Of a stretch of 64,000 bases of DNA, positions 14,522 to 36,385 are shown one piece after another. Position 1 is the stretch's first letter, and each line of letters starts with the position of its first letter. Under the pieces are notes generated by a model that was given only the letters and a program-made list of their open reading frames with translations, was not told where the DNA came from and made no database searches. Source of the stretch: Candidatus Bathyarchaeota archaeon (lineage in GTDB: Archaea; Thermoproteota; Bathyarchaeia; Bathyarchaeales; Bathycorpusculaceae); the NCBI GenBank assembly GCA_963815095.1, contig CAWFFH010000004.1:192001-256000 (forward strand), in the 5' to 3' direction. Made by a program: the position numbers and the translations under genes.

Positions 14522-14599
14522 TGGTGGACCGGGCCGGATTCGGACCGGCGACCTTCTGCACGTCAAGCAGATGTCCTAACCAGGCTAGACGACCGGTCC
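14522..14599 (-). tRNA. tRNA-Val(GAC), CCA encoded
   Basis: GGACCGG/CCGGTCC acceptor stem; TCTGC-TTGACGT-GCAGA anticodon arm; T-arm GCCGG-TCCGAAT-CCGGC. Confidence 0.95.
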
Positions 14600-16814: not shown

Positions 16815-17054
16815 GTTTGAGAGTTAAGTACTTTATCATTATCACCCTTCTGCATCTCCCGCATAATATCCCCTTTTCTTTTTTTTCTAATAACAATAAG
16901 GAGGACTTTCTGTGAAGCAGAAAGAAATTGAGGCTGCCTCCATAACGATGCAAATTTTCCTTACAGGCATGGCTCTCAATTTTAACGCTACCTATCATGA
17001 ACTTGAAGAAATCACTAAAAGAGCTTTACTTGAAATCCAAACGGAGGCCTAATA

Positions 17055-17342
17055 ATGGCTGAAGAATTTCCTCTCTTTAATTTTTGTTCAAACAGACAAA
17101 ATGATGGGTTGCCATTTTGGAAACCTAAAGAAAATACGACAGAAAGAAAGGCAAATGATTTTGTGAGTACTTCTTTAACGGCTGGTTGCTGTGAGTTTAT
17201 CGGTGAATTAATAACAACTGGCAGTGATGGCAGATATTGTTCTGATGGCACTTTCTGTCCAGCAAGAATCTATACTGACGCCAAAGTTTTCGAAGATTGC
17301 CCAACCCGAAAAGATAAACTGAAAACAAAACAGGGAACTTAG
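17055..17342 (+). CDS. Cys-rich hypothetical proviral protein
   Basis: GGAGG RBS; six Cys in 95 aa. Confidence 0.55.
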   Translation: MAEEFPLFNFCSNRQNDGLPFWKPKENTTERKANDFVSTSLTAGCCEFIGELITTGSDGRYCSDGTFCPARIYTDAKVFEDCPTRKDKLKTKQGT

Positions 17343-17355
17343 GAGATCATGTTTT

Positions 17356-18380
17356 TTGGCTGCCTCACCTGATAACAACGCAAACACCTCTAGCAACACC
17401 AGTTTAAACAGTTTAGCGGATAAGCACTGGGGCATCGAAGCGCGGGTCTTTCATGCTATTGATGAATCAGAAATTGAGCTACGACCCATAGAGATTGCCC
17501 GCAAAATCCATGCGCCACACAAACCAACACGTGCCCAATGCACAACGGTTCGTGTGGTCCTAAGAAAACTCTTAGCGAAAGGGCTTAATCCTGCAGCCCT
17601 ATGTTGGAAGTTACTGCAACAAAATCACCTACGGGCTGCGGTTCGTACCACTATGCGTACACAACATAAGCTTACGCAGCTTTGTTTGTCAGGATGTGAA
17701 GTCTTGGGAAAAAGACGAGTTTGTGGGCGGCGTGAAGATTCATGTTTGCTTTGGAGCTGAGAGGCGTAAGATTTCTGGGTATATCGCTTGTGACGTTGGC
17801 GGTATGAGTCATGATGCTTGTCTATTGGCGCTTAACCGTTGGTTTGATATTGTCCAGGATCATCTTGGGCTGGCAACTAAACGACTTGCAGATTTTAACT
17901 TTTGAATGCAACAAAGACTACCACGGCGTACGCATCGATGGCGTTCAATGTGTAACTAAAACGGATCTCTTTGGAATGGTTGAGCGGGTGTACCAGAAAG
18001 AAGAGAACTTGGTTCGCAAAGAACGCAAGACTGTTCGCCCGGTGAGCGTGAATAAGTTTGAAGAGGCCATCGCAATGGGTTTTGCTGGCGTTGACAAGAC
18101 TCAGGAGCATTTTGAGTTAAAGGAAGAAGTTAAGCGAGTTAGTGAAGCTTTGAAGTTTAATAATTCTCGATCGCTGTCGATGGAGCGTTTGCTCGAGGCA
18201 ATTTACAAAAGCAAGGTCGCTGACGTCGAGAAAGTGAAAGGTCTTGAGGGTGAAGTTGCAGCCCTTAGAAGCGACATAGGCAAGCTGACTGCGGCGTTAA
18301 CTCAGGTTTTCAATTTTGAAGGTGAGCCCGATCGGGATCAAGCGGATGCGGGTGCGGGAGGTAAAGAGTATGTCTCTTAA
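17356..18380 (+). CDS. wHTH protein with C-terminal coiled coil, candidate replication protein (2 frameshifts)
   Basis: Joins ORFs 17356, 17696 and 17811 via indels near 17586 and 17868; HTH ELRPIEIARKI...VRVVLRKLLAKGL. Confidence 0.5.
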
Positions 18381-18646
18381 GGTTACTGCGAACATTCATG
18401 CGGTGCAGTTAGAGCTGCTGGTGGGGCGAGTAATGCTAAGCCTACATTCTAGCCTTTGCATTGGGCTGTGTCCAGAGCTTCTGTACAACCGTCATAGTGT
18501 TCGCAGTAACTGGTTTTTGGAAGTTAAAAGGTGTTCAAAGGCACTTTTGGCACCTATTGGAAGGTATGGTAAAAGTCCATGCTTTTCAGAAGTTGCTTTT
18601 CTAAGGTTGCTTGGTCCTGATTACCCATTGTTAGTTTTACCATCTG

Positions 18647-19168
18647 TTGATGGACGAAAAAACATGGAGTGTGCACTCTGAAATGGAAGAAACGAAAAAC
18701 CCTGTTCAAAACCAGAAAAAGAGGCGAACTCAAAGTGATAAGATAGGCCGTTTGAAGTATAACCAGCAGCTCCTCAAACAGACTTTAGCCGAAGTTGAAG
18801 AGGTCAAGCTTATGCTTCGTACGATTTTTGCTGGTTTGAAGGGGTCTTTCAATTTTGAGCAATCCCTCATTGAGCGTGTTGCTTGCGTAGATGAGGTAGA
18901 TCGGGAGATTCTTCATGCTCTTTTTGAGGCTGGTTCTTCTGGGTTACTGCCTAAGGATTTGGCTGCTAAGCTTGAAAGATTTAAGGTTAACAGGCATAAG
19001 GTAAGCAGGAGACTTCTAAGAATGAATAAGCATCTGGAAGAAGAGTTTGGTGAAAATGTAGTAGAAAAACGAGGGTGGCATTGGGCGCTTACAAGCTTTG
19101 CTTCTGAAGCCTGGGGCAAAAGCAAAAGAGAAGTTGAAGAAGACCTAACTAAGTGTTGGAATGAATAA
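18647..19168 (+). CDS. wHTH DNA-binding protein
   Basis: DEVDREILHAL...GLLPKDLAAKL...HKVSRRL.RMN...VEKRGWHWALT. Confidence 0.65.
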   Translation: MMDEKTWSVHSEMEETKNPVQNQKKRRTQSDKIGRLKYNQQLLKQTLAEVEEVKLMLRTIFAGLKGSFNFEQSLIERVACVDEVDREILHALFEAGSSGLLPKDLAAKLERFKVNRHKVSRRLLRMNKHLEEEFGENVVEKRGWHWALTSFASEAWGKSKREVEEDLTKCWNE

Positions 19169-19295
19169 TCAAGATAGAATATTCCTTTTTGCATTAATAT
19201 CTATTTTTTTTCTGTGCAGTTGGTCACGTTTACTCCGAAATAACTTTAAACCATACTTGTATTAAATAACCAAAGATTTACTCAATTTATTTGCT

Positions 19296-22200
19296 ATGGG
19301 TTTGTGTGTGAAGTTAAAAAAAGTCGGTTCGAACCTGCAAATTTCTTCTGATATCAAAGTTGCAAATGTGTTTCCAATTGTTGGGATTGGCGCTTCTGCA
19401 GGCGGATTAGACCCCATCAGGAAGTTTCTGGAGAATTTGCCTATTGATATGGGCATGTCTTTTGTTGTAGTCCAGCATTTGGCTCCGGGACAAGAAAGCC
19501 TTCTTCCTGAAATCCTTTCAAGATCCACTAAAATGAAGGTTTTGCAAGTTCAAGATGGCATGCAAATTGAACAGGATAAGGTCTACGTAATTACTCCAGC
19601 AACAACCATGACGTTGAAAAACGGACAACTCAGACTTGTTCCCAAAGGTTTGGCTCTCAAGCCCATCAACGACTTTATGATCTCCTTAGCATCCGAGCGA
19701 AAAACCAAAGCAATCGGAATTGTTTTGTCAGGAACTGGCAATGACGGAACCGAAGGATTAAAAGCAATCAAAGCCGAAGGCGGATTAACCTTTGCACAAG
19801 ACCCGGAAACAGCACAATATCCCGACATGCCCAAGAACGCCATAGCTGCAGAAGAACCGGATTTTGTCCTTTCACCAGAACAGATAGCCCAAGAAATAGT
19901 TAAGATCGGCAATCACCCTCAACTCAAACATTCCGAAATGTCGGCCAAACAAGAAAAAACCGAGACCGACTTGAAGAAAATTATCATGCTGCTAAAGTCT
20001 TCTTTTGGCGTTGATTTTACCCATTACAGAGACACAACAATTGACCGACGCATTACACGACGCATGGTCATTAACAAGTCAGAAAACATGACGGCATATG
20101 TCGAGTATTTGCGGAAGAATCCGAGTGAGCTGCAGTTATTGTTTGACGACCTGTTAATTGGCGTAACAAGCTTCTTTAGGGAACCGGACACTTTCGTGGC
20201 ATTGAAAGAAAAAGTTTTTCCAGAACTCATCAAGAACAAGTCACCCAACGAATCCATACGAGCTTGGATTCCAGGCTGTTCCACAGGAGAAGAAGTCTAT
20301 TCTTTTGCCATAACAATTCAAGACTTCCTAGAAGAAAAAGGCATACCCGAGATAAGGGTTCAAATTTTTGGAACGGATGCAAATGAGAAAAACATTGAGA
20401 AATCTCGACAAGGAACCTATCCAAAAAACATAGAAGACAACGTCTCCGAAAACAGGCTAAAACGATTCTTCACTTTCTCCAACGAACATTATCGGATAAC
20501 AAAAACTATTCGTGACATTTGCATTTTTGCAAAACAGGACATTACAACTGATCCTCCTTTCTCCAACATAGATCTCATTATGTGCAGAAATGTGCTTATT
20601 TATTTTGATTCTTACCTTCATGAAAAAATATTGCACATTTTCCATTATGGCCTAAAAACGAATGGTTTTCTAGTTCTGGGCGAGGCTGAAAGTGTTGGCA
20701 AGTTTCAGTATCTGTTTCAACCAATTATTCCAGGAAGCCTAATTTTCCGGAAGAAACAAGCCCAACCACAGGTATTGTTAGGTGAAGAAGTCTTTGTTCC
20801 TCACTCTATGAAGAAAACTGCTGAACCGCTTGAAAAAGCAGACTTGATATCGGTTTTGAGCGAGAAAGTTGATCATCTTATAACATCGGAGTATGGACCG
20901 GCGACTTTGTTGTTGAACAACAACTTGGATATACTGGTGTTTCGCGGAGATGTTGCTCCTTTTCTTTCGCCCGAATCGGGAGTCGCGAGCTTTAACGTAA
21001 CCAAGATTGTTCGCAAAGAGTTGAGGTCGCAAGTTCAGACTGCTTTGTATAGGGCAAGAAAAGAAAAGAGAGCTATTAAAGAAACGGTGGGTTTCAAACA
21101 AAAAGGGCAATCAAAGACAGTTAACATCGAGATAAGACCATTAGAAACAGCACAGTTCGAAGAACCGTTCTACCTTGCATTATTTACTGAAGGACCCACG
21201 CGCGATGCTTCTTTAGCTAAAGAAGTTGAATCTGTTGTTTTGCAAGGTGAGGCGGAGAGCCTTAAGGATCGTCAGATTCGTGAACTCGGAGAGGATTTGG
21301 ATGCAACTAAGCGATCTTTGCAGAGTCTTATGGAGGGGCAGCAGGCGACTAATGAGGAGTTGCGGTCGTCTATGGAGGAGGTTCAGTCGAGCAATGAAGA
21401 ATTGCAGAGTACAAATGAAGAGTTGGAAACCGCAAAGGAGGAGCTGCAGTCAGGCAATGAGGAGCTGCAGACTCTTAACGAGGAGCTTAAGAACCGCAAT
21501 CAGGCTCTTGGTCGCCTAAACGATGACCTAACTAACTTGCAAACGAACATTGACCTTCCCGTGGTTATTGTCGATAATGAGCTTAAGATTAGGCGTTTTA
21601 CTGTTTCAGCTCAAAAACTTTTGAAGATTTCGCCATCCGATGTTGGGCGGCCTATTACCGATTTCAATCTGGGCGTTTATGCTGTTGATTTAGGAAAGAC
21701 AATCTTGGATGTTACCACTAAGTTAGCTGGTGTTATTCAAGAAGTTGCTTGCGCCGAAGACCGGTCGTGTGAGATGAGTGTTCGACCGTACTTGACTGAG
21801 GAGAAAAAGATTGACGGGGCAGTTCTATCCTTCACGGACATAACCGAACGCAAGAAAATGGCGCAAGAGTTATCTGTCTCTCTCGAAGATTCACAGCGGC
21901 GTGAGTCTGAGATTTCAGCCTTATTGAAATCATCAAAAGTAGTTTTGCAAAACAAAGAATTTCCGGATTCGGCGCGAGCAATATTTGACGCTGCCAAAGA
22001 ATTAATTGGAGCCACAGCTGGCTATGTCGCCCTCTTAAGTGATAACGGAAGAGAAAACGAAGTCTTGTTCTTGGATGCTGGAGGGCTTCCTTGTACGGTT
22101 GATCCTTCGCTTCCGATGCCTATTCGTGGACTCCGTTCTGAAGCGTACAACTCTGGGAAAGTGGCAGTTGAAAATGATTTTAACAAAAGTGAATGGAAGA

Positions 22201-23180
22201 AATTTATGCCTGATGGTCATGTGCAACTCAAGAGTGTATTGTTTGCACCATTGATGATTGAACAGAGAGCTGTCGGGGTAATCGGGTTAGCTAATAAACA
22301 GGGTGGATTCACCAAACGTGATCGCGAAATGGCAATGGCGTTTGGAGAAATTGCCTCGGTTGCCTTAGCCAACAGTAAAATGCTTGAGATGCTGGAAGAA
22401 AATGAAAAAGAGTTAAAGAAGCACTCTGAGCATTTGGAGGGGCTTGTTGAGGAGCGAACCAAGCAGCTTAAAGATTCTGAACGCTTGGCGGCTATTGGTG
22501 CAAACTGCAGGCATGGTTGGGCATGATATTCGAAATCCTCTGCAAGCTATAACTGGCGATGTATATTTGGCTAAAACAGAATTAGCTTCAACGCCTGAGA
22601 GCGAAGAGAAAAAGAGTGCATTAGAAAGTCTTACAAGAGATTGAGAAGAACATTGATTACATTAACAAGATTGTGGCTGATCTACAAGATTTTGCAAGAC
22701 CACTTAAGCCAAATGCAGAAGAAACCGACCTAAAACCGTAATTGATGAACTTACTATCGAAAAATGGTTTACCCGAGAACGTTAAAGTAAGCGTTAAAGT
22801 TGAAGCTGAAGCTAGAAAAATTGTGGCTGACTCTACTTTCATTAACCGCATTATGTACAATTTGGTTAATAATGCTGTTCAAGCGATGCCAAAAGGCGGC
22901 AAACTAACTATACACGTCTACAAAGAAGCAAAAGATGTCTTAATAACTGTCAAGGATACAGGCGTTGGCATTCCTGAAGTATGTAAAAAGCAAATTGTTT
23001 ACGCCTATGTTCACGACTAAAGCTAAAGGTCAAGGCTTCGGCTTAGCTGTGATTAAACGTATGACTGAAGCATTAGGCGGCACCGTAACTTTTGAGAGCC
23101 AAGAAGGCAAAGGAACAACTTTCAAAGTACGTTTGCCCCCCCCCAAAGAGCTAAACGGTAAATTGGTCTACAAGCATTGA
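19296..23180 (+). CDS. CheB-CheR-PAS-coil-PAS-GAF-histidine kinase hybrid (3' part split by frameshifts)
   Basis: GASAGG/VQH/GTGNDG (CheB), GCSTGEEVYS (CheR), NEELQS repeats, GAF, HDIRNPL, NLVNNA, DTGVGI, GQGFGL across ORFs 19296, 22444, 22742 and 22965. Confidence 0.9.
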
Positions 23181-23229
23181 AATAAGCTTAAAGGAACTCA
23201 AATTCTTAATTCTGAAATTTCTTAATTTA

Positions 23230-23469
23230 TTAGATATTCTGAATTACCACAAACCCTTCCAATTCTTTTAGGAATAGTTTATGTTTTTTCAGAATTGGTG
23301 CAATACTTTGTTTTGAAGTGCTATCGACAGAGCAGTTTATTTTTATCTCGAACTCTTTTGATGAGATGGAAGTTTCCGGGTTATCTAAAGAAACGCTGTT
23401 CATTGTCACGGATTCTTTGAACGCTTCTAGGATTTCGTGAAGCACAGCGAGGGCTTCTGCTCTATCCAT
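23230..23469 (-). CDS. small hypothetical protein (paralog of 43405..43641)
   Basis: MDRAEALAVLHEI... aligns by eye with MDRVQAMNLIKEI... Confidence 0.65.
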   Translation of the reverse strand: MDRAEALAVLHEILEAFKESVTMNSVSLDNPETSISSKEFEIKINCSVDSTSKQSIAPILKKHKLFLKELEGFVVIQNI

Positions 23470-23608
23470 ACTCGCCAGTCCCAGTTGTGATTATTGATTC
23501 AATTTGTATTTATGTTTTGTGCGTACCCACTTGAACCTATTAGATAGTTAAAAATGAGAATCCAATTCTATGTCAACTCTCAGTTTAAATGTTACCTTAA
23601 AATCGTCT

Positions 23609-24149
23609 CTAAATGTGAATGTTTTTTAGACGTTTGATACTCGATTTTAGAGAATTCCTAAAGCAGTAAGAACATGAAAAATTATCACTAAGAAAAACAC
23701 CATAACTAAAGCTGGCGTGAATAAATTGGTTAGTCTTATGGTCTATTTGCTTTACTAAAGGGAATCTTTCTGCGAAACCTGTTGTCACTTCCAAAGTTAA
23801 TGCAATGTACAGGATTAAGCCTGTTCCTAACGCTGGGTAGAATGCTATTGGTCTTCCCAGTTGAGCTGCAAAATGAATTGAGATTAGTGAAAAGAAGAGA
23901 AGGTTTCCAAAGATGTGGTACCTAAGGAGCCCCTTAAACTTTTAAGGGGTAAAAACGCTTTAAGACCACGAATGCTGGAGTATCGATTGCAATGTAGCTT
24001 GTGCCAATTATGGAGAGCCAATGGCTAAAACGAAGAGGACCAACAAAGAAAAGCACGTTTAGAAAATGTAGGTATGCAGAAACCATAAGCGAACCTGCTA
24101 CTAAGACAATTAACAGTGCCAGCAAGAACTCAGAATCTTTGAAATTCAC
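23609..24149 (-). CDS. multi-TM His-containing membrane protein (cytochrome b/ferric-reductase-like), frameshifted
   Basis: Joins ORFs 23934..24149 and 23609..23794; SHWLS, RYHIFG, SIHF and FIHA histidines in TM helices. Confidence 0.5.
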
Positions 24150-24250
24150 TAAAATCCACTAACTTAACTGATGAACAACCGAATATAAAAGTTACTTGAA
24201 GAGCAGCGCCTTGAGATGTCAACTCAACTCGCTCCTTGCAATTTAGCGCT

Positions 24251-24391
24251 CTAATTCTTTTGTTCAGACAAAACGTTCTCAAAATGTAGCTCTATGTATT
24301 CGCTTCTTGATCTTTTCTGCTTGGAAGCTTCTTTGTCTATCTTCTCTAAAACGCGGTTAGAGAGGGCTATGCTTACTGGGTGTTTACGCAT
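24251..24391 (-). CDS. ribbon-helix-helix (CopG-like) regulator divergent from the capsid operon
   Basis: MRKHPVSIALSNRVLEKIDKEA....SRSEYIE. Confidence 0.8.
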   Translation of the reverse strand: MRKHPVSIALSNRVLEKIDKEASKQKRSRSEYIELHFENVLSEQKN

Positions 24392-24492
24392 AAATCCTGA
24401 CCCTTTGAATATTTGCCGCTTGTTAATATTTAACAATTGCTGTTAAGGCTTAACAACAGCCTTTTTCAGCAAAATAAGCCTAATTCTGCCTT

Positions 24493-25244
24493 ATGACCCA
24501 GGATAACTGTAACGGTTGCAAGCATGTTCGAGAACATGTAGCTTCCCTTTTACCCTTCAAAGTTTTAGAATCAATCGCAGACAAACCCTTGCGTATTGGT
24601 GGAGTTGCAATGGCTCCGGGCTGTCTCGAAATTTCAATGTTTACACGCCTGAGGAACTTGGGATTTTCGCAGAGAAGCTAGTTAATGCTCCAGTGTATAT
24701 TGAGCATGTTGCTGTTGAAACTGCCTCTGGAAAAGTCACGAAATGCACATACGATGCGGCAACTCGCAGTCTGCTTTATGAAGCTGAGATTTACGATCAA
24801 GCGATTGCGGATAAAATTCGCAACGGTCTCATCCAGCACGTTAGTGTCGGCGCCGACTATGACTCACTTGATGTAGTTGACGCCAAAGTTCCTCATGGGC
24901 TTTTCAATCCTGAACTGTCCCTTGTAGCTGTTCCGGGCATTCCTGAGACAAACGTGCATGTGATAGAGCGGGTTGAGGAGAAACAGCTTCAGGAAAAGCT
25001 CGCTCAAAGAGAATGCAAGTTAACTGAAGCGCAAACAACAATTGAGGATTTACGCAAGCAATTGCCCAGTGCCAGTTTGCTTAAGAATCCGCCTAAAATG
25101 ATGCCTGTTTCTGAGCATGTTTCTGAGGTAAAGGGCTTGCTGTCACCTTTGATGGTTGAGCGCAGTTCCATGTTTGCCATGCGGAAACAGCAAGAGATTA
25201 GAGCTGTTCTGTTTCGTGCTAAAGAAAAGTATGGAGTGGACTAG
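24493..25244 (+). CDS. prohead protease with C-terminal scaffold-like coil (frameshift near 24617)
   Basis: IGGVAM..G.SRNFNVYTPEEL, VYIEH, HVSVG and ELSLVAVPG. Confidence 0.75.
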
Positions 25245-25327
25245 CTGTGTTTTTGCTCACTTTTGTGGGGAAGAGTACCAAAGGACGAACTTTGGGAAAT
25301 TCAAAAAATTTAATCGATTTGATTTGA

Positions 25328-25756
25328 ATGGCCGATAAAACAGGCAAAGCTTGGATGGCTGCAGGAGAAACAGACGACCCAAACGCTATCATAGAATCTT
25401 TTGAAGCAGCAGTCGGCGTCACTAAAGGCTCACCGGTTTACTTGAGCGCTGACGATAAGGTCTCGCCAAGTCCAGGCGGAGACGACGCAATTGGCATAGC
25501 AACTAAAACTGTTCTGGCAACCGAAATATGCCCAGTTCTAAAGCGTGGACGAGTCAAAGTCACTGTAGATGGAGCTATAACACGTGGAAAAGCGGTGTGT
25601 GGTGCAGCTAACGGGAAAGTTACTCAATTCGTTGACCAAGCGGTGAACGAAGGCGGAGCAGCAACTTTAACCATCTTCTACAATCGCAAATTAGGCACAG
25701 CGCTTGAATCTGCAACAACTGACGGCGATTTCATCTTCATCAATGTGGAGAAGTGA
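25328..25756 (+). CDS. capsid cement/decoration protein (DUF2190-like)
   Basis: FEAA..VTKG.PV...AIGIA...V...G.V.V...GAITRG.AV...LGTALE.A...GD.I. Confidence 0.75.
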   Translation: MADKTGKAWMAAGETDDPNAIIESFEAAVGVTKGSPVYLSADDKVSPSPGGDDAIGIATKTVLATEICPVLKRGRVKVTVDGAITRGKAVCGAANGKVTQFVDQAVNEGGAATLTIFYNRKLGTALESATTDGDFIFINVEK

Positions 25757-25760
25757 TTGC

Positions 25761-26724
25761 ATGAAACCTAAACTATTCGAAGCTCTACAGATAGCACGAT
25801 TCTGAACAGAAGCGCGTCTATGAAGACCTAAAACGCAAACTTGAGGTGAACCCGTTTCTTAAGCGCTATGTTGCTGTGGGCGTAAAAGAAGGATTCTTTA
25901 GCGACTCGGCAAATGCGCTTGGACGCGTGCATGACACTATGGTTGAAGCTGCTTGGCCCGAACTAATAGGTAGAAGCATAATCAACGTTATGCCGACCAA
26001 TGAAGCAATGGAGCGTTTCCCACTCGACGAAGACGCAGTTGCTTATCAATATGCTGAAGGCGCAGTCGTACGCTTAAGCGGCAAAAAACCCAGCAAGGTT
26101 GACATATACACAAATATCACCGTAGAGTCAGGCGATGAATGGACCAAAGAGTTCGATGAAGACGCAACCTGGAACGTTATGGACCGCATGGTGAGCAACG
26201 TTGGCAGAGCAGTCGGAGTCAAGGAAACCCAGAAAATTCATATCCCTCTATGCTGCTATCGCTGATGCTGATTTGGCGACTGGTGCAGTACTTGCCGGCG
26301 GCGGTGCAGTGTTAAGTTGGGCGTCAACTTTTATCGTTACATTATGCGGTGCGCAGTCAGAATTGGAAGCCAAATGTTTTGGCAATCAATGAGATGCAAC
26401 TGCATCAGTTGCTAAACGATGAGAACTTTATGAAACGGAGTTATGCTGCCAAGTACGCAAACTGACATTGACCAAGGATCCATCGGTACGATATTGGGTA
26501 TGAAGGTTCAAGCCAGCACTGGAGATTCCAAACGGAACAGCCTACGCAATTAGACACACGAGTTGCTACTGTGATGCTTCTACGAAGAGACGTCACTGTG
26601 GAAGACTGGGAAGACGTCAAAAACAGGCAAGTACGGCATCCGAGGCACCACCCGCTTTGGGTTAGGCATTTTGCGCTCCAAAGCTATTGCCAAGATGACC
26701 AACATCAAAGCAACACTAACCTAA
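25761..26724 (+). CDS. HK97-fold major capsid protein (several frameshifts)
   Basis: IGRSIINV...EGA...EDATWNVM; C-terminus LLRRDVTVEDWED...YGIRGTTRFGLGILRSKAIAKM. Confidence 0.8.
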
Positions 26725-26794
26725 AAGCGCTTCAAAAACCATCAACATTTCCCTCTTTTTTTGGGATTGAATAAAAATCAAGGTAATCTACGTC

Positions 26795-28042
26795 ATGAGT
26801 AAAGTCATCAGAAAAATCCGTGAGGTCCTCTCTTATGCGCCTGCTTCTGGCGTGGCAACTCCAAATGGCAGAGTGTTCTTTGACACTTCCTGCATTCCCT
26901 TAGCAGATGTTATGAAGCTCTATGACCGAGACCCAACCTGCAAGAGCAGCGTGGATTTATTGGCTGCTTCAACAGTTGGCATGGGCTTCTACACCACTGT
27001 AGATGAGAAATACGAGAAGGCAGAAGCGAAGCCAAAGCCGCCGTTGATAAGTTCTGTGAAGACGTCAACTTGATGGCTTACTAAATGATATGGCTAAGCC
27101 TTTGATTGGCTGCGGCAACGATTTTTGGCTTAAACTCACGCCTGAACAAGCTAACGGATACTCTGCGTATGCCCATCGATGCAGTGCAACGCATTGGACT
27201 AAGCTCTGTTCCCAACTTGAAATTCCCTACAAAGTTACGGGTTACCAACTTCAAAGCACCTATGGCGGCAATGCTGGAAATGAGCTTAAGCCTGAAGCGG
27301 TTATCCATTGGCGCCTTAACGGTGATGTTCCTTCGGGTTTTGGTGTTGGACTTGCTGCAGGTGCTCTTGCACACCTTAACCATTGACACCGATAAGCGCC
27401 CTTCTGACGCTTGGATGAAAGCCAAGATAGAGAAAATTCTGCCCAACATATTCACAAAGTACGCTGGACCGGACGTTGTGGTGCAACTGGAAGGCCAGAA
27501 AGAGGACACCATCAAAAAGTATGAAACGGCAATCAAGAATCGACCTGAAGAGGGGCAGTGGCTTTTCAGTGGCGCCAAAACCGTCGGCGTAAATCCAGTA
27601 ACTATTGACCCAAGAGCACGCTTCGAGTACTACATCGACCACATGGTTAACCAATTCTATCTCGGATGCGAAACGCCATTGCCACGGTTGTTTAGCACTC
27701 CAGGCTTTACCGAAGCAAGCGCAAAAGCTGCGCTAGAACTTCAAGATATGCTCATAAAACCCGTCCAGCGCTACATCAAGCGCCAAGTCGAAAAAGAACT
27801 TTTCGCCCTTGTTGTTGCTCAAGGCGGGTTTGATGCCGCCAAAGCTAAGGTAAGATTGAATTTTGGCTAGTCCCAAAACACCTGAACTAGTCCTAACCGA
27901 TCTCATCAAAGCAGCTGAACTTGGGTTAGTTCGAGCGGAAGAATTCCGAAAGAACGCAGTAAAATTCGGTTGGGAACTCTGGGACGATACTTCACAGAAA
28001 CGTAGTCAAAGTAACACATCAGATAGCAAGGGAGGTGATTGA
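26795..28042 (+). CDS. portal protein (several frameshifts)
   Basis: LY..DPT.KS.VD.LA....G.G, EAVIHWR......FG.G, ASA.AA......IKP.QR.I...VE..LF, GLV..EEFR. Confidence 0.75.
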
Positions 28043-28235
28043 CACGGCAATCTTATCGAACAATGAAGAAGGGTTTATTCTTGGAATCGCAGAAGCAAGC
28101 GGAGCAGGAGCAGCGTTCTTAGCAACACAGCCAGTTGACCCAGCCCTCAAAGTTGCAGCATGCGGCATTTTGGGCTTTATCAGCGTAACGCTCAACGCTT
28201 TCTGGTTCAAATACGTAAAACCAGCTTCTTCTTAG
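28035..28235 (+). CDS. small 2-TM protein (holin-like)
   Basis: Two short hydrophobic helices inside the virion operon; start uncertain. Confidence 0.4.
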   Translation: MIDTAILSNNEEGFILGIAEASGAGAAFLATQPVDPALKVAACGILGFISVTLNAFWFKYVKPASS

Positions 28236-28398
28236 GCTTTTTTGGCTTGACACGGCTCACTTGAGGGGCTGTGCAAGAATCCAAACAAGAGGGAACAAGC
28301 AAGATGACGAGAGAATCAAAAGTTGCAGATGTGGCATTTAGCGGAGCGTTTGGACTTAGCAATCAGTTCATTATTGTTCCTTTGGGGGCATTCATAAC

Positions 28399-28752
28399 TT
28401 GGCTTCTGTTTCAGTTGATGACGTTCGGGATGTCCTTTACATATTAGCGATTCCGATATTCCCGACGCTAAAATCTTAAAAATGATTAAACGCGCATCTG
28501 TGACCTTGGCACTTGAGCTATCTGAAAACATCGATTATTCAAATTGTTCAGACTCTCAAAAGGAAGGCATAACGCTTCTGGCAGCTATCTATGCGGTCTG
28601 CTACTTAACTGGCGGCTCAGCAATCGGCTTAAACTTTCAGCGTCGGCGACCTAACAAGCTCAACATCATCTTTACCAAGCTTAACAGTTTTGCAAACGGA
28701 GTTCGAACGGATTCTTGCTAGCCTCAAAGAGCCTTATGTGGGGAGCGTGTAG
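28399..28752 (+). CDS. head-tail adaptor (gp6/gp15-like), frameshifted
   Basis: MASVSVDDVRDVL...DIPDAKI..MIKRA...AAIYA...FSVGDL; position after the portal gene. Confidence 0.65.
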
Positions 28753-28754
28753 AG

Positions 28755-30150
28755 ATGGGAACCGTTCCTGAAGCCTATTATCAGTTTATAATGGACTATG
28801 CGCCCATACGTTTACATTATTCCGCCAAACACACCAGACCCAGCATATGGAAAAGGCGTTTTAGCAGCTAGCTTCGCTATCGACTTTTTATGTGAAGCGT
28901 ATTCTGCCAATCAGTTTGAGGACAGAAAAGAAAGAGGTCTATGACAAAATCGTAAGTTTAGCTGATTGGGTTCTAACCCAGCAATGCATCGACCCAGCAA
29001 GGAAGGCTTATGGCGGTTTCAAAAGCGCAGAAAACAGCACTTACTATTACAGCGTGGATGCTTGCAGAGTTATTCCTTCACTTCTAAGAGCCTATGAACT
29101 CACAAACTGATAGCCGATATTTAGACACTGCAAAGCTTGCTGGTGGAACTTTTCTTAAAACCATGCAGGACCAGCAATCATACGGCGGCTTCGCTAGAGC
29201 AGTAACTATCGGCGATGCTTGGCTTTTGCAGATGGACGTCGAATGCCTCTATGGATTAATCGGTTTGAATATGTTGGCGGAAAAGCACGATGTCCCAAAC
29301 TCTGTAGTCTACCAGGATATTATGAGTAAAGCGATCGGTTTTCTAGGGAACGGCTTTGAGAACCTTTGGCTAAGCTATGACCCTTCAGATGGAAAATGGC
29401 ACCGGGTTGGCTTAAATGAGAACGAGGTTTATGATGACCCGTTCGCCTATGCTTTGCTTGGATTATATGATTTTGAAGGCTGGAGCGCAAGCTGCCAAAG
29501 AGTCTACAATTGCCTAAACAGCATAAGAGCAAACGCAAAATATCCAGCTTATAATCCTGCAGTTTGCTGGGCAGGATACATAGATATCATTAGCCGATTC
29601 TCAGCATGCGATTATTACGATGCCGTCACAAGCGGAATTTTATGGAAAATCCGCAGCAACCACGACAAACCAAGTCTTGAATTTAGCATCAAAGTCCTCG
29701 AGAAGCATAGCGAGGAATTCATGTTCTGGGGCGCCAAACACGCAGACTACAGTTATGTTGAAAACAAGCAGGCTATGGTTACCGTTTGCTGGCTTGCGCA
29801 CTTATTCCTCAACTATGAAGAACCCTCAACCCACATTCACAAGGATTTTAAAAAGCAAGGGTGAGACAATTCAGCTTTATCCGATCAGGCAAGCTGCCGA
29901 CACTTTGGATTATGGTGAGCCACTGGATTTGTTAGCTACTGTTTCTGCTTTGAAAGAAGAGCAAGTAATGCTTGAAGCAGGCTACTACCTAAACGACTAC
30001 ATCGCATTCTACACGTTTCTTCCAGTTCGGGTTCATGACAAAATAAGGCGCCAAGGCGAAGACTACGAAATCCAAACAGTAACACCCTACATTTTTGCGA
30101 ACCAGCGGATTTACTTCAAAAGCGTAGCAAGGAGGCTGATTGGCAATTGA
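28755..30150 (+). CDS. alpha/alpha-barrel (six-hairpin glycosidase/terpenoid cyclase-like) domain fused to head-closure domain, frameshifted
   Basis: DWVLTQQ...YGGF, LLRAYELT.D.RYLD.A, FL..MQ....GGF; C-terminal ~105 aa DKIRRQGEDYEIQTV stopper-like. Confidence 0.6.
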
Positions 30151-31168
30151 GCGTGGTCGAAGTTGAGAATCCCGTCGTAACTGTTCTGCGCTTAATTGAA
30201 TCCCGAATTAGGGTTGTTAAAGACGATGGCGGATTAGCAAACATCCGGTGTTCGCAAGCAAACTATGACCGCGAACTCCTAAAAGACGTAGACGCCCAAA
30301 TTACACTCTCCAAAACCACTGACCCATGCCTACCCCAAAAACACACCTTGGATGGAAAGTTAAGGCGCCGCATCTATTCGCTAAGAGCAACAATCTTTGC
30401 AATCGATAAGCCAACTCCAAGCGCCGATGTTGGCAGAGTTATGCGAGACAAAATTCTTGAACAGCTGCTTTTGATTGTTCCTGAAAACCGCAACCTACCC
30501 TACAGAACCATCTACAACTTTTACCCACTAAACTCAACGTCTACAACTCACAAAGCCTACACTGCAGCAGCTTTGGCGGAACTTGAACCCTCAAGCGCGT
30601 CTTGGGTAGAACTGTCTGATTTGGAATATCCAAACCTTTGGAGCAGTGACGACGTTAGGCACTCTAAAAGCGCAAGCGGCATCAATGAATTTGCGTTTAT
30701 GCTATTCCGCTTCAAAATCGGTTCTAAAGCTGGAGAAACCCGCAATGAACCCCGAAAACAGTGCTTAAAGCGCGTAGTCTTGTCCTTTGAAGGCTACGGG
30801 ACTGCACCCATGGGAAACGGTTTAACCTGCAAAGTCTGGGATAACGTGGCGGGCGCATGGACTAATCCCCAAAGTAGCGTTTCAGAAACAGATGAAACCA
30901 CAACCATCACACTTAACGTCAAATCTAACCAACTACGTCAATGATGACGGCTACCTCTACTTATTGGCACAGACAACCCATTCAAGCGATGGAAACACAC
31001 CGCCGTTTTGTACTGCGATTTTATCCAAGCAACCGTTGACGTGCGAGGCATAACGTTTTGTGACGTGCACAGTTACCGAGACATCGACGTTGTTGATGTC
31101 AAACCCTTCCTCTACAAAGAAGAAATCATCTCATGGCATGGCTCTTCGAGTCCATAGCCATCTCATAG
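30147..31168 (+). CDS. tail terminator-like protein with inserted beta domain, frameshifted
   Basis: Neck position; ENPV..VLRLI N-terminus and RDID......FLY.E C-terminus flank a ~170-aa beta-rich insert. Confidence 0.5.
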
Positions 31169-31184
31169 TCATAGGTGAAACCGA

Positions 31185-32049
31185 ATGGTTGACACATATC
31201 ACTCCGACCAAGAAAAATTCTATTACGTGACCGAAGGCTCCTTCGGCGTTGTTCCAGCGACTCCAGCGATGCTTGGGCACTCCTGCAGCAACATTGACCC
31301 GGACATAAACCCAAACAACATCAGAGTTCCAGGAACAGGTTCAGTGGATGCGGTAGCGCTTAAACAAGGCTTAAGACAGCCCACGCTGCAATTGAAGTAT
31401 CCGATTCCTTCAGATGCACCAATTAATCTTTTGCAGTATGTTAAGCAGGAGCTAAACAACAGCCTCACCCTCCAGGTGCTCTACTACAAAGACATTTTCG
31501 CCACAGCAACCGACATCATAAGCCTACTCTATAAGGGCGCACGCTTCAACAATGCAACGCTCACATGCGACATAGACGGTCTTTTGGAGTGCGAAGCAGA
31601 ATTTCTAGCCCAAGACATCGAAGTAACCACAGCTAAAATCGCAGATGCAACCTACACCGATTATGCTGGCGCCGTTTCAGGCAGTGAAAGCTACGTCAAA
31701 ATAGGCGGTGTATCTTGTGAGCGGGTTACTTCTTGGAAACTTTCAGATTGACAACTCTTGCAAACCTGTCCCAGTCATCAGATCAGTCAATGGGCACTTA
31801 GCCAAGTACATCCCATGGGGCAAGCGTCTTCTAACTGGAGAATTGAACTTTGAGTTTGAAAGCAAACAAGAAGCCGACGACATTTTAGCCGACACAGAGC
31901 AATCCAGCTTAGAGTTTGGGCTTGGCGGAGCCAACAAAGTTAATGTTGCTTACGCAAAGTGGGATGATTTTTCTTTGAGCGGTAAATCTGAGGATTTGAT
32001 CTATGCCAAAGTTCCTTTCACGGCCAGAGGACCGCTTACAATTTCATAG
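31185..32049 (+). CDS. major tail tube protein (frameshift near 31740)
   Basis: YYVTEGSFGVVPATP N-terminus; W...IDN....V......L...P.G.R..TGEL.FEFE; GGTGA RBS. Confidence 0.75.
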
Positions 32050-32060
32050 GAGCTGAAAAA

Positions 32061-32595
32061 ATGAAGCAAGACAGTCGTAGAGATTGACAATCGATTTGGA
32101 GAGGAATACCAGGGCAAATATGTTTTCAAAGAGATAACCTGGGCGAAACGGAACCGCATAATCCAAAAGCACACAAAGTACAACAAGTTTAAGCGGAGAC
32201 GTTGAAAGCAGCGATTTCATAGCAATTCAAGCAGAAACCATAATCTGCGAGCATGCATGGGCAACCCGACATCTAAGCCAATTACGCTTGAGAAGCTTCT
32301 AAGCGAAGAAGACGGCATTCCTATTGAGCTTGGCGAAATCTTCTCCAAAGCTGTTAACAGCCTAAATGGCATGGGACATGAAGATTTGCGTTTTTTATTA
32401 GAGCAATTAGACGAGGAAAGCCGCATCCGGCTCTTGTCGAGTTTCGGTTATGCAAAGAATTCGGTTGGACCCCAACAGAGCTCGCAAAGCAGCCAGCCCG
32501 AACAGTCGTAGGAGTTCTGCCACATCTTAAAAGAGATGGACGAAATGGCGAAGAAAGAAAAAAAAAAGGCGGAGCGTGAAGCAAAACGGCGATAG
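32061..32595 (+). CDS. tail assembly chaperone pair (G/GT-like) with -1 slippery site
   Basis: Follows the tube gene; T TTT TTA at 32391-32397 leads in the -1 frame to LCKEFGWTPTEL..QP. Confidence 0.65.
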
Positions 32596-32953
32596 AAGTA
32601 ACCTGCGACATCGAAGGCATAGAAGAATTCAAAGTGCCATGCAGCGATTCGATTCAGGGATGCAGCGTGAGGTCCATAGCTTTTTGGCTAGTTGGGCTGC
32701 CGACGTAAAAGCCGAGGCGCAAAGAATTGTTCCTGTCCGTACAGGTTATCTTCGAAGCACAATTTATGCGAAGGTTCAGGAATGGGTCGTGGAAGTTGGG
32801 GCAGATGCCGCTTATGCCTTATTCGTTGAATTAGGTACCAAGTACATGCAAGCGCATCCTTACCTTTACCCTGCCATCCAAGAGTACCTTCCACAATTGG
32901 AATCCGTTGTTATCGCGGCTATTGAGCAAGCAAAAGCGGAGGCTGGGCTATGA
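32588..32953 (+). CDS. HK97 gp10-family tail/neck protein
   Basis: AQRIVPVRTGYLRSTI...YALFVELGT.YM.AHPYLYPA; 5' end frameshifted. Confidence 0.85.
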   Translation, partial: GDRSNLRHRRHRRIQSAMQRFDSGMQREVHSFLASWAADVKAEAQRIVPVRTGYLRSTIYAKVQEWVVEVGADAAYALFVELGTKYMQAHPYLYPAIQEYLPQLESVVIAAIEQAKAEAGL

Positions 32954-33534
32954 GCTTCAGAGAAATTGCCCTCACTATCCGAGCGGTAAACCATGCAAGC
33001 ACCGAGTTTAATAGAATCAAAACTGACGCTGAAACCCTTGCAACACGGGTCAAAAGTTTAGGAGCAACTTTAGCTGGTTTAGGCGCTGCGGGAACAGCAA
33101 TTGGATATGTTGCTAACCAGTTTGGAGTTTTGAACGATTCTGAGATGAAAGTTTTCAACTCTTCCATGATGGTTGTTTCAGTCATGGGCATGTTTCTACG
33201 AACAAGTGCAGGGTTAGCAGTTGCTCAAAAGGTCTATTCTGCGGCTTGTTGGGTGGCTACTGCAGCCCAGAATGCCCTAAACATCAGTTACGGAACCTTT
33301 TTAGCTTTAACAGGTGTCGGGATTGCGGTTATTGTTGCGGCTGCCGCTGCCATGGCTTATTTTGCAACCAGCATGAACAATGCAACAGCTAGCGTTCAGA
33401 ACTTCAACAGTGCAACAGCTGAGACGCCTACGCATACTCGCAGTATTCAAAGGGCGGGCGAATCGGCGGTTACTTCGGGTTCTCGGAGCAGCGGTTCTTC
33501 TGATGCTTCTTTCTATCGGAGGGGCGTTGAATAA
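32950..33534 (+). CDS. very short tape-measure-like protein
   Basis: IALTIRAVNHAS..F N-terminus; Ala-rich ATAAQNALN...GIAVIVAAAAA typical of tape measures. Confidence 0.6.
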   Translation: MSFREIALTIRAVNHASTEFNRIKTDAETLATRVKSLGATLAGLGAAGTAIGYVANQFGVLNDSEMKVFNSSMMVVSVMGMFLRTSAGLAVAQKVYSAACWVATAAQNALNISYGTFLALTGVGIAVIVAAAAAMAYFATSMNNATASVQNFNSATAETPTHTRSIQRAGESAVTSGSRSSGSSDASFYRRGVE

Positions 33535-34010
33535 GTGAGCGTTAATCCGCCAGTTATGACGATTGCTTTGGGTTCAGTAGGCATTCCTCAAGCTGACGTC
33601 ATAGAAGCCTTGGTTCATTTGGCGTCCACTAAAGAGGTCAGCAGCTGGGAGCTTCATTTACAGAATTGGGATGGAAAATACAGCCCAAACGGCACTTACC
33701 CGCTAAACGTAGGCCAAGACGGACACATCTGCATTGGCAGAGGCGCCAATATCCCTCAGCTCATCACCACAAGAACCGAGAGCATAAAGTTTCAGTCAAC
33801 CCCAACCGAACACTACGTTACCGTAGCTGGGCGATGCTGGGGAGAAAAACTCTTCCGCCAAACCGTAACCAAGGATTATTCGGGTTTCAAAGGCGAAGAC
33901 ATCGTCAAGGACCTCTTAGATTACTATTCAGGGTTAAACCATGTCCGTGGTAGCACTGAACTGGTCGAGAACACAGATACAACATTTTCCGATTTAAAGG
34001 TCAAAGATAC
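33535..34010 (+). pseudogene. tail hub/baseplate-like protein truncated by deletion
   Basis: WELHLQNWDGKY...V.GRCWGEKLF..TVTKDY...GEDIVKDLL; sequence switches to integrase coding near 34010. Confidence 0.6.
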
Positions 34011-34382
34011 GCATTTGGGAATGCTTTTCGAACTCTTAAGAATCGAGTTGCTGAAACACAGAAAAACCCTCGCCTATTAGCTGTTGAACTGAGAGGTTTT
34101 CGGCATTGGGGAGGAACACAGATCGCTTACTACACCAACGGAAACGTACTAACCGTAAAGAAGCTGCTGAGGCATAAGGCTATTAAAAGCACTATGAAGT
34201 ACATCGGCAAAATAAACTTTAAACAAGATCAATTTGAAACAACCGCAGTCACTACAAAAGAAGAAATCTTAGCGTTAGGTTCCTCTGGATGGGTAAAGTA
34301 CGACGAGGTTTCTATTAACGGCCAAATATTCCACTGTTACAAAAAGCCGAAAAGATTCAGCAGTTTGCAAGGAGGAACTTAA
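34011..34382 (+). pseudogene. C-terminal fragment of tyrosine integrase
   Basis: Frame read by hand: AFRTLKNRVAETQKNPRLLAVELRGFRHWGGT...VKKLLRHKAIKSTMKYI (R, H and Y catalytic positions); N-terminal part absent. Confidence 0.8.
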
Positions 34383-34521
34383 ACATGTCGAATATCTTAA
34401 AGGATACGAATGTAGGGGTTAAGTTTTCCAGTACGGGGATAAGTACTTTTTCCCAACAATAATCGTTTGGAATTCGGTAAACATTTAAGCTACTGTAGAC
34501 TAGAACTATTGACTTGTCTGT

Positions 34522-34606
34522 GCCGAGGTGGCAGAGTGGTTAACGCGCGGGCCTTGAGAGCCCGTGGACTCTCGAGTCCGCATGGGTTCGAATCCCATCC
34601 TCGGCG
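34522..34606 (+). tRNA. tRNA-Ser(TGA)
   Basis: GCCGAGG/CCTCGGC acceptor stem; CGGGC-CTTGAGA-GCCCG anticodon arm; long variable arm; GGTTCGAATCC; G discriminator. Confidence 0.95.
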
Positions 34607-34815
34607 CTTCCATTTACTTAAAGCAGACTGAATTAAACCCTGATCTGGAATTGAATAAGCGATTCCTATGAAAAGTTGAAGAAGCACCTTAATTCCTTTT
34701 CTTTGGCATGAAGACTTAAAAAAAAATTCAAAATATCGCAAGATGAGAAGAAAAATTAAAAAAACACCTATTCCTTATTTACTCTTGACTTCGTTGTAGT
34801 TTTAGGTGAAAATAT

Positions 34816-34998
34816 ATGAAAGATTTTAAATGCCCCATATGTGGAGCACCCACGGAAAAGATTTGGGAAAATGCAACCAAAACAAAATACGGAATGAAAT
34901 GCACAAAAGGACACACAAAAAAAGGTGGCAAATCAGGTGATTCAATAATAGTGGAGTATCCCGTATTTCTTGTTCCAGAAGAAGAACTTGTGATGTAG
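34816..34998 (+). CDS. small zinc-ribbon protein
   Basis: CPICG...CTKGH; AGGTGA RBS. Confidence 0.65.
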   Translation: MKDFKCPICGAPTEKIWENATKTKYGMKCTKGHTKKGGKSGDSIIVEYPVFLVPEEELVM

Positions 34999-35134
34999 AG
35001 AATAGGCGCTTTTTTTTGATAGTTATAGAATCGTTGTATCTTCTAACAAAAATTTATCCTCACTATAGAATAACCCTTGCACCTAAGAACTCTATTTTTG
35101 AACAAGAAACCAATAAACAAGGAAATTTTTGTAG

Positions 35135-35854: not shown

Positions 35855-36038
35855 AGTTTTACCTCTATTTCACAATCTAACTTTACACGTTCTATAGACT
35901 CATATAAGGATGCGCTCGGTTCAAAGTTGATTGATTTTTTATAGCCTGTTGAATTATTTTAAACTGCAAACCTTAAAGGGAGCTTAAATGGTTTTCAAAA
36001 TTATTCTTGTGGTTTGAATCTTAGTTATTTCTTGAAGA

Positions 36039-36251
36039 TTATTCTTTATCACGCTTTGCAATAATAAGACCTAAAACTAAAAATGCGAAAGCAATGATGT
36101 AAAGAAATCCGATGATGAAAACTATCATAATGCTAAGCCAATAAGGTTGATTTTGAATAAATTTTTCGAAGACTGCCAATATTGTCAATACAAAGGCTGG
36201 AACTAAGAAAACCAATCCAATAACAATTAAGAACAGCGACACTTTACCCAT
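36039..36251 (-). CDS. small 2-TM protein
   Basis: MGKVSLFLIVIG... two hydrophobic helices. Confidence 0.5.
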   Translation of the reverse strand: MGKVSLFLIVIGLVFLVPAFVLTILAVFEKFIQNQPYWLSIMIVFIIGFLYIIAFAFLVLGLIIAKRDKE

Positions 36252-36385
36252 AGAAAACTCGATATACTTTGAATTGTTTAAGCTTTTACAAGACTTAACT
36301 AATTCAATTTTCCGCCATCTGCAAACGCTCAAACCCTTCCCGATCAAGCGTTTCCTCTTCAATTTTATCTTCACTTATATTTCTA

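Follow-up and report, generated by a model that had tools for sequence, protein, structure and literature searches.

The stretch of DNA analyzed here (hereafter, the window) comprises 64,000 nucleotides from contig CAWFFH010000004.1 of a Candidatus Bathyarchaeota archaeon and contains, between positions 16825 and 34449, an integrated element carrying the head and tail genes of a tailed virus next to a tRNA-Ser gene. The source genome (G000; 2.69 Mb in 9 contigs, ~41% G+C) holds the window at C4:192001-256000. G-numbers designate related genomes and L-numbers fetched loci, and coordinates refer to the window unless a contig is given. The features of the element are compiled in Table 1.

Table 1. 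Features of the integrated element and its borders, in window coordinates; amino acid (aa) identities are to the locus named. RHH, ribbon-helix-helix; wHTH, winged helix-turn-helix; ORF, open reading frame.
Feature	Position	Strand	Basis
Left 10-bp direct repeat TAAGTACTTT, attL/target duplication	16825..16834	+	Empty-site junction of G009/G001 here; two window copies only
Regulatory region of two ORFs (17356-17760 and 17811-18380); the latter has a terminal stretch resembling the C-terminus of the wHTH/MarR-like protein (297-321 aa) of relatives	17356..18380	+
Conserved 173-aa family protein (relatives' 187-aa gene), frame intact	18647..19168	+	72% aa to L027, no frameshift; collinear in relatives
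CheB-CheR-PAS-GAF-HisKA-HATPase sensor kinase, cargo slot 1	19296..23180	+	Pfam; frameshift-aware alignment to host paralogue
RHH regulator, 61 aa	24251..24436	-	RHH_1, E 2.6e-4, 21.3 bits vs cut-off 20.5
Putative prohead protease/scaffold fusion, one frameshift near 24615	24493..25229	+	76% aa to L052
Cement/decoration protein, intact	25328..25756	+	Phage_cement, Phage_cement_2, phrog_673 at 5e-12; no frameshift
HK97-type major capsid protein, seven +1 frameshifts	25719..26721	+	90% aa to L026 after frame correction
Portal, six frameshifts	26795..28039	+	91% aa to L037; 68/68 invariant residues kept
Two small ORFs (66 and 58 aa), one hydrophobic segment each, at variable slot 2 position	28035..28447	+	Kyte-Doolittle windows >=1.6; no family matches
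Small neck-module protein (relatives' 116-149-aa gene), two frameshifts	28399..28749	+	82% aa to L028; no Pfam/PHROG match
462-aa-type neck protein, five +1 frameshifts	28736..30150	+	80% aa to L040
339-aa-type conserved virion-module protein, AF_1625_C-like, three frameshifts	30147..31165	+	84% aa to L039; 29/29 invariant residues kept
Tail tube, two frameshifts	31138..32049	+	PF18906 and phrog_290 on both pieces (split ORFs 31185-32049); 87% aa to L032
154-aa-type protein between tube and gp10, up to six frameshifts	32003..32527	+	80% aa to L037; no family match
HK97 gp10-like tail-completion/neck protein, intact	32576..32953	+	PF04883 at 5.8e-7; phrog_5 at 2e-18
Hydrophobic 194-aa protein (182 aa in relatives), intact	32950..33534	+	92% aa to L029; hydrophobic segments; no family match
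Hub/baseplate-like tail protein, N-terminal ~163 of 531-536 residues	33535..34021	+	86% aa to L029 residues 1-163
Tyrosine integrase C-terminal stub; frame open to 34379	34026..34379	+	34026-34292 vs residues 318-405 of 421-aa relative, tblastn 36%, E 1e-12
Right 10-bp direct repeat TAAGTACTTT, attR	34440..34449	+	Empty-site comparison, repeat count
tRNA-Ser(UGA), intact, 72 nt outside the insertion, not itself the target	34522..34607	+	ARAGORN

The 10-mer TAAGTACTTT occurs in the window as two exact copies only (0.21 expected by chance), which coincide with the start and end proposed in an initial annotation that had postulated a compact archaeal head-tail provirus of atypical architecture. 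The corresponding site is empty in two genomes of the same genus (G009, locus L111, and G001, locus L109), in which the equivalents of window ~16837 and ~34436 are joined with one copy of the motif. The empty sites and the terminal repeat together establish the interval as a genuine, bounded 17.6-kb insertion with a 10-bp duplication and, combined with its virus genes, bear out the proposal of an integrated archaeal head-tail provirus. The repeat was recognized through the empty-site comparison, and a repeat search of the tRNA-Ser region against the left side returned no long att repeat, only 11-12-mers located elsewhere. The tRNA-Ser gene and its 86 upstream nucleotides are host sequence at the empty sites of both genomes; since the proteasome paralogue that follows tRNA-Ser in the window has a different location in G001 and G009, the comparison of flanks was anchored on the tRNA-Ser junction. 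A different left end, formed by a tRNA-Val gene (14522-14599) and a 416-aa ORF, was discarded, since the ORF encodes a DUF2400 protein rather than an integrase and belongs to the host sequence of sister genomes.

Collinear tblastx and tblastn matches relate the element to five other loci and to L048, with identities to the best relative of each gene ranging from 72% to 92% at the amino acid level. The set and order of these genes (173/187-aa protein, protease, cement, major capsid protein, portal, 462-aa protein, 339-aa protein, tube, 154-aa protein, gp10, 182-aa protein and hub) are those of Bathyarchaeia tailed provirus 1 (BATPV1), whose contig carries L048. With regard to the hallmarks of the Caudoviricetes, sequence profiles predict an HK97-fold capsid protein, its relative (L021:6510-7481) matching PF05065 at 28.6 bits (cut-off 24.2; E 1.2e-6) and phrog_267 at 2.9e-14. 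Because Pfam, PHROGs and PDB profile searches were all silent for the portal, this protein was identified through its fold: an AlphaFold model of the family portal (39 sequences; pLDDT 65, a moderate value) matched the lambda portal (8xot_B, E 5.6e-9) and those of HFTV1 (8qsy), G20c and RcGTA with a Foldseek probability of 1.00, which confirms it as a portal. The third hallmark, the large terminase, is absent from this copy and present in the family, the gene having been lost through a deletion detailed below.

The 462-aa-type neck protein is conserved, with 93 invariant columns, many of them aromatic and acidic, over 25 relatives (L025:11582-12970 and homologues). Its model (pLDDT 72) displays an (alpha/alpha)6 barrel matching the GH76 mannanase 4d4b_A (E 5.8e-6), as well as glucuronyl hydrolases and sugar epimerases, and a C-terminal beta domain of ~100 aa with weak matches to small phage models annotated as 'closure knob', 'head-tail adaptor' and 'stopper' (E 0.02-0.3). 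The model indicates an N-terminal six-hairpin glycosidase-like barrel fused to a domain with a weak head-closure/stopper resemblance. Among the remaining virion proteins, the 339-aa-type protein clusters with PF27237 (AF_1625_C) in the ESM Atlas (score 0.98), and the full-length relative of the hub matches the YQBQ-like family PF24032 and tail PHROGs, with weak matches to the gp5/VgrG oligonucleotide/oligosaccharide-binding (OB) fold and to baseplate hubs. PDB profile searches with the portal, 462-aa, 339-aa, hub and protease proteins yielded nothing significant, the best hits being a C5-epimerase at 0.038, a gp5/VgrG OB-fold at 0.0024 and a WD40 protein at 7e-4 without a passing stretch.

Several of the functions assigned in the initial annotation are confirmed. 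The signalling cargo, RHH regulator, cement, major capsid protein, tube, hub N-terminus, integrase fragment and tRNA are backed by family, relative or ARAGORN matches, the placement of the portal after the capsid gene is confirmed by fold, and gp10 does come after the 154-aa gene and before the hydrophobic 182-aa gene. The 'stopper' call survives weakly, for the C-terminal domain of the 462-aa gene only, and the protease and wHTH calls draw on weak matches in relatives (among 23 relatives, five match Peptidase_S78 and four Phage_scaffold for the protease/scaffold; MarR/HTH_45 and phrog_2440 for the wHTH protein). At the left end, residues 240-321 of the wHTH relative align with 18087-18377 at 36% identity by tblastn, and at 53% over 18228-18377 by dynamic-programming (DP) alignment; a Pfam search of the window ORFs at 17356-18380 gave no match. 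Neither family nor fold support was found for an 'adaptor', a 'terminator', 'chaperones' (the label given to the 154-aa protein) or a 'tape measure', the hydrophobic protein being short for the latter at 182-194 aa, and the 'membrane protein' label had hydropathy as its sole basis.

Intact relatives, which the initial annotation had proposed to look for, were found and measure ~33 kb. The relative at L021 (genome G013) encodes, on one strand, a wHTH-like protein of 321 aa, a 187-aa protein, variable genes, an HTH protein, a 263-aa protease/scaffold candidate, cement and the PF05065 capsid protein, followed by a 411-aa portal, proteins of 149, 462 and 339 aa, tube, a 154-aa protein, a gp10-like protein, a hydrophobic 182-aa protein and a 536-aa hub-like (YQBQ-like) protein. 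Beyond the hub it continues with a 137-aa protein, a TerS-like HTH protein (small terminase), TerL (large terminase) and a 479-aa ABC-ATPase/GNAT protein. The relatives' TerL matches PF03237 at 59.3 bits and phrog_2 at 1.4e-38. To the right of the ABC/GNAT gene lie variable defence genes, consisting of a type I restriction-modification system and Mrr in G013, and of a UvrD-PD-(D/E)XK helicase-nuclease, a methylase and a PIN protein on the BATPV1 contig. Rightmost in the relatives is a tyrosine integrase of 421-442 aa (PF00589 at 6.7e-23 in the relative used for comparison) that abuts the 3' end of a tRNA-Ala, tRNA-Pro or tRNA-Leu gene, and this tRNA end is repeated far to the left, over 20 bp at a distance of 32.8 kb in G013 and over 22 bp at 33.3 kb in JAAKEZ010000002.1.

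A survey of gene order in 80 loci, with flanks limited to 10 kb, revealed the order protease-cement-capsid-portal on one strand in all 70 loci holding the four head genes. TerL was in view in 14 of the 80 loci and lay downstream of the hub in the eight that hold both. Tailed viruses usually follow the order terminase, portal, protease, capsid. The order reported in the initial annotation as atypical does depart from this usual order, and portal-after-capsid and gp10-after-tube are typical of the family. The architecture is normal for its group, and the missing terminase reflects a deletion. Two departures from the common order were also observed, namely a TerL homologue in G014 (L015/L016) that is inverted and located ~20 kb upstream of its usual place, and a portal gene in G052 (L019/L020, L024), from another host family, that is inverted and upstream of the protease gene. 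An ABC-type ATPase of 479-498 aa with a GNAT region directly follows TerL wherever the region is in view (L021:17974-19413; L025, L029, L035, L038, L039, L048 and others).

These comparisons show a family layout that runs from attL through wHTH regulators, cargo slot 1, RHH regulator, protease/scaffold, cement, HK97 capsid, portal, cargo slot 2 and neck proteins to tube, gp10-like protein, hydrophobic protein, hub, TerS, TerL, ABC-ATPase/GNAT, slot 3 (defence), integrase and attR in the tRNA 3' end. Intact members would be temperate, with regulators at the left end and an integrase recombining attP with the tRNA 3' end; a long rightward operon would express head, neck and tail genes and then the terminase, and the three slots would carry host-like sensor, HEAT and defence genes.

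Measured against this layout, the window copy is truncated at two genes. Homology to the hub stops at 34021 (residue ~163 of 531) and homology to the integrase begins at 34026 (residue ~318 of 421). No terminase was detected in 16825-34449 by Pfam, PHROGs or tblastn with the relatives' proteins, in agreement with the initial annotation, which had noted none before the head genes, and neither tblastn nor frameshift-aware alignment found a window match to the relatives' 137-aa protein, TerS, TerL or 479-aa ABC protein. A single deletion between hub and integrase accounts for both the compactness and the missing terminase. It joined the hub gene to the final quarter of that for the integrase, taking with it most of the hub, TerS, TerL, the ABC/GNAT gene, slot 3 and three quarters of the integrase. 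The element would have arrived earlier through a tyrosine integrase, inserting between genes, 72 nt upstream of tRNA-Ser, with duplication of 10 bp, and the present copy is presumably incapable of DNA packaging, tail completion and self-excision. The idea of a compact element is thereby set aside, as the intact relatives, at 32.8-33.3 kb, have TerS/TerL, ABC/GNAT, defence cargo and a full integrase. Taken together, these data make it very likely that the window copy is a defective, right-arm-deleted, about half-length temperate head-tail (Caudoviricetes-type) provirus of a widespread Bathyarchaeia family that includes BATPV1.

The extent of this family was assessed through its portal. The longest portal piece of the window (27106-27870) has matches, in open frames of 400-440 aa and up to 8 per genome, in 22 of 61 related genomes including G000; 12 of the 36 genomes of the same genus have one, and other matching genomes belong to five further families of the order. 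A portal profile returned 151 confirmed loci out of 178 pattern hits in contigs of one genome per species, and 167 confirmed contigs of up to 37.7 kb in IMG/VR. The 80 portal loci retained from these 151 come nearly all from Bathyarchaeia/Bathyarchaeota, the exceptions being a few labeled 'uncultured archaeon', two 'Methanocella sp.' contigs of metagenome-assembled genomes (MAGs) and one 1.6-kb 'Pirellulales' contig. The description of the host as poorly sampled does not agree with 151 species-representative loci and 167 IMG/VR contigs for the element. Among 50,697 deposited genomes of phages and viruses, none matched the portal, and TerL reaches no more than ~30% identity to deposited viruses (23% to Halorubrum phage Hardycor1). 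With cultivated archaeal tailed viruses (Haloferax tailed virus 1, HFTV1, and the arTV families) the family shares an HK97-type capsid, a portal and a T4-type TerL, the HFTV1 portal being among the best fold matches, but it differs from them in gene order, with the portal following the capsid gene and the terminase following the tail genes, and has no sequence-level portal match.

Members of the family are, however, already in print. The available text of Xu et al. (Microbiol Spectr 2024, PMC11705971) describes BATPV1 as JAAKEZ010000002_pro, a provirus of 33,358 bp that carries a HEAT gene ('CpcE') and a pPIWI gene, and we find it complete, with 22-bp repeats in tRNA-Pro 33.3 kb apart in agreement with the printed length. 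Its portal is 89% identical to the family query, and L048 and the window share their gene order from the 173-aa gene up to and including the hub (75% nucleotide identity over 9.7 kb). The same slot 1 is occupied by the HEAT/PBS-lyase 'CpcE' cargo in L048 and by a sensor kinase in the window, and BATPV1 has the TerS/TerL, ABC/GNAT gene, defence cargo and full integrase that the frameshifted 17.6-kb copy, integrated at a non-tRNA site, lacks. Region 1 of the complete Bathy-6 MAG (ISME Commun 2024, PMC11697101) contains, in the accessible portion of that report, a 46.8-kb provirus classed by Virfam as Siphoviridae-like, with terminase, integrase and structural genes, from a virus called 'common in Bathyarchaeia'; as described there, it is longer than the window copy and intact. 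Locus L041 on CP170178.1 (Bathy6-F90_cMAG_MillC) has a portal 78% identical to the family query, and its isolate name suggests that this is the complete MAG of the Bathy-6 study, in which case L041 may lie within the 46.8-kb interval. 'Fuxiviridae' and 'Kunpengviridae' (Duan et al., ISME Commun 2024, PMC10848311), from other host orders, are likewise head-tail viruses assigned to Bathyarchaeia, and their genomes are not among the loci compared here. The lack of a deposited portal match, the TerL divergence and the members in print indicate that the group is known and formally unclassified. The notion of an uncharacterized lineage consequently stands as regards deposited virus genomes and fails as regards the published BATPV1 and Bathy-6 proviruses, the 151 loci and the 167 IMG/VR contigs; likewise, the synteny that the initial annotation had named as a possible refutation exists with the published BATPV1, in a group without formal classification. 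The element is an ordinary defective member of this known group, and the copy itself matters little, being a broken representative of proviruses already in print and abundant in databases. The family map nonetheless corrects the idea of a terminase-less compact virus, replacing it with three cargo slots, a terminase after the tail genes and a conserved glycosidase-like/stopper neck fusion.

The frames of the element are interrupted by ~36 frameshifts, located through frameshift-aware DP alignment against the best relative of each gene, of which 33 fall in the 12 structural genes and 3 in the kinase. The cement, gp10 and 182-aa genes are intact and the other nine structural genes are out of frame. 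Frame changes in the structural genes are predominantly +1 (n=24), followed by -1 (n=5), +2 (n=3) and -2 (n=1); counting the kinase, 27 single-base insertions (24 structural and 3 in the kinase) contrast with 5 one-base deletions, the rest being three +2 and one -2 event. No in-frame stop is present in the 13 frame-corrected genes, the structural ones among them showing 76-92% identity, and read-through retains 254 of the 259 residues invariant in the family (90 of 93 in the 462-aa protein and 67 of 69 in the protease, with all of those in the portal and the 339-aa protein). Meanwhile, 23 ORFs of sister genomes match 19 distinct G000 genes (~18 kb), each as one open frame, and a second family remnant on the same contig as the window has a similar excess of +1 and +2 shifts. 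A homopolymer error model was rejected, as the frameshift contexts are not homopolymers, and an alternative genetic code was set aside, as the breaks are changes of frame and not stop codons. Long neutral decay would be expected to leave nonsense codons and lost invariant residues; we thus consider it probable that the frameshifts are consensus or polishing errors, or very recent changes, rather than the outcome of long pseudogene decay. Local consensus errors could come from reads of related elements, which are abundant in the genome and the community. The pattern serves as a warning that provirus regions of MAGs can hold local consensus errors mimicking pseudogenes, and that 'repair and annotate' should begin with the reads.

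Several observations weigh against these interpretations. The frameshift positions are approximate, and the shifts themselves may be genuine mutations. The 154-aa gene could be explained by one in-frame stop instead of three mutually compensating shifts, and one tblastn high-scoring segment pair (66%) spans that stop; reading the 173-aa ORF against a longer relative reveals two further stops immediately upstream of it. DNA identity to the closest fetched relative is ~77%, and no near-identical intact copy is therefore available as a reference. With regard to integration, the repeat is 10 bp here versus 20-22 bp in intact relatives, the target is intergenic and upstream of tRNA-Ser whereas relatives use a tRNA 3' end, and the integrase stub is only 36% identical to the tested relative, indicating that integration specificity differs from that of the relatives examined. 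Integration into a tRNA 3' end with a full tyrosine integrase and 20-22-bp repeats is observed in relatives G013a and BATPV1 and not in the window copy. Lastly, no replication genes were recognized in the two right arms scanned.

The foremost alternative is that the frameshifts are real and that the copy is an old, thoroughly pseudogenized relic that decayed after deletion of terminase and integrase. This would fit the sequence as given, in which the reading frame is broken in nine of the 12 structural genes and in the cargo kinase, and in which ORF coverage of the element is 0.66 versus a genome median of 0.83. The sampled host genes are clean, which speaks against a genome-wide quality problem, and several other family fragments in G000 indicate that such decay occurs there. 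Neutral decay collecting ~36 indels should, however, also leave many substitutions and several nonsense codons, and the frame-corrected genes have neither in-frame stops nor appreciable loss of invariant residues. In addition, single-nucleotide insertions outnumber deletions by 27 to 5 at non-homopolymer sites, while the bias commonly reported for pseudogenes of prokaryotes runs the other way, towards deletions. We regard an old relic as possible, yet distinctly less likely than consensus errors or very recent change.

Other explanations fare worse. It is improbable, in our estimation, that the dense insertions are real and non-random, arising from an unknown process whose small insertions inactivate integrated viruses, or from a very recent indel-only burst aimed at foreign DNA; this reading builds on the +1 bias, the lack of nonsense codons, the clean sampled host genes and the confinement of the shifts to provirus DNA in two G000 remnants. 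The second of these remnants (C4:29401-35706) has the same +1/+2 bias, with 14 shifts and one stop, at 45-52% identity and with noisy placement. A still smaller likelihood attaches to a helper-dependent element, whose head, neck and tube genes would be functional if the frameshifts are artefactual and which would borrow packaging, hub and excision functions from other elements. G000 does hold an uninterrupted TerS/TerL pair (C3:852973-854920, 65% identity to the family TerL) and the second neck-tail module at C4:29401-35706, and the invariant residues are retained; but that module is itself frameshifted, the relatives showed no conserved short form, the junction cutting two genes in mid-frame looks accidental, and there is no evidence of expression or mobility. 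A naturally compact, terminase-less and uncharacterized lineage of novel architecture is hardly credible: the interval without a terminase, the lack of a portal match among 50,697 deposited records and a gene order that is unusual and real would speak for it, but it is contradicted by both truncations, the copy ending inside the hub gene and resuming inside the integrase gene, by intact relatives of ~33 kb encoding TerS/TerL and by members already reported in the available text of PMC11705971 and PMC11697101 and present in IMG/VR. Equally hard to credit is a domesticated, gene transfer agent-like locus kept by the host for particle production, for although the copy has head and tail genes without recognizable replication genes, an RcGTA portal among its fold matches and conserved invariant residues, it lacks a terminase and has a truncated hub, the closest two genomes examined (G009 and G001) lack the insertion, contrary to vertical inheritance at a single site, up to 8 matches occur per genome at different sites, and the relatives carry integrases, tRNA att repeats and variable cargo.

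The defective provirus carries its sensor-kinase gene inside the insertion, at a slot where relatives hold other genes. Pfam searches on ORFs place the HisKA and HATPase parts in other frames than CheB-CheR-PAS-GAF, and three +1 frameshifts (near 22500, 22630 and 22979) all fall in the conserved HisKA/HATPase end, with none in the unique 3.2-kb N-terminal part. Kinase homologues with 56-68% identity lie near the portal in 4 of 190 loci, in slots 1 and 2, making sensor-kinase cargo recurrent in the family; host paralogues are 53-59% identical, and a CheB fragment with 90% identity is found at C6:2252-2776, beside other family fragments. The segment comprising the RHH gene and its upstream region (24276-24487) recurs with 85-88% nucleotide identity at three places in two fetched G001 stretches (once in L108 and twice in L109), and may be a conserved regulatory cassette starting the head operon.

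Further family pieces are dispersed in G000. Besides the uninterrupted TerS/TerL pair (C3:852973-854920, TerL 65%) and the frameshifted neck-tail module (C4:29401-35706, 40-69% aa identity), they comprise, with pieces at C1:180-1777, C6:396-3005 and C3:1181831-1188393, two wHTH plus 187-aa gene pairs, 81% identical, at contig ends, as well as scattered fragments of protease and portal genes. It seems that contigs C1 and C6 break within such elements.

Family-related sequence is also present in G001 on the 3' side of the same tRNA-Ser (L109, G001:C4:350000-369999), comprising a homologue of the 187-aa gene, a HisKA/HATPase segment with 77% nucleotide identity and the RHH segment; the contig yielded no portal. 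The surroundings of this tRNA-Ser look like a hotspot. Window positions 34608-45042, which encode a second proteasome-alpha paralogue (35135-35854), a family B DNA polymerase (38418-40715) and a Rad51/RadA-like protein (40953-41678), are missing from the syntenic site in G009, where tRNA-Ser is directly followed by the homologue of window ~45042 onward, and may be another island or a rearrangement.

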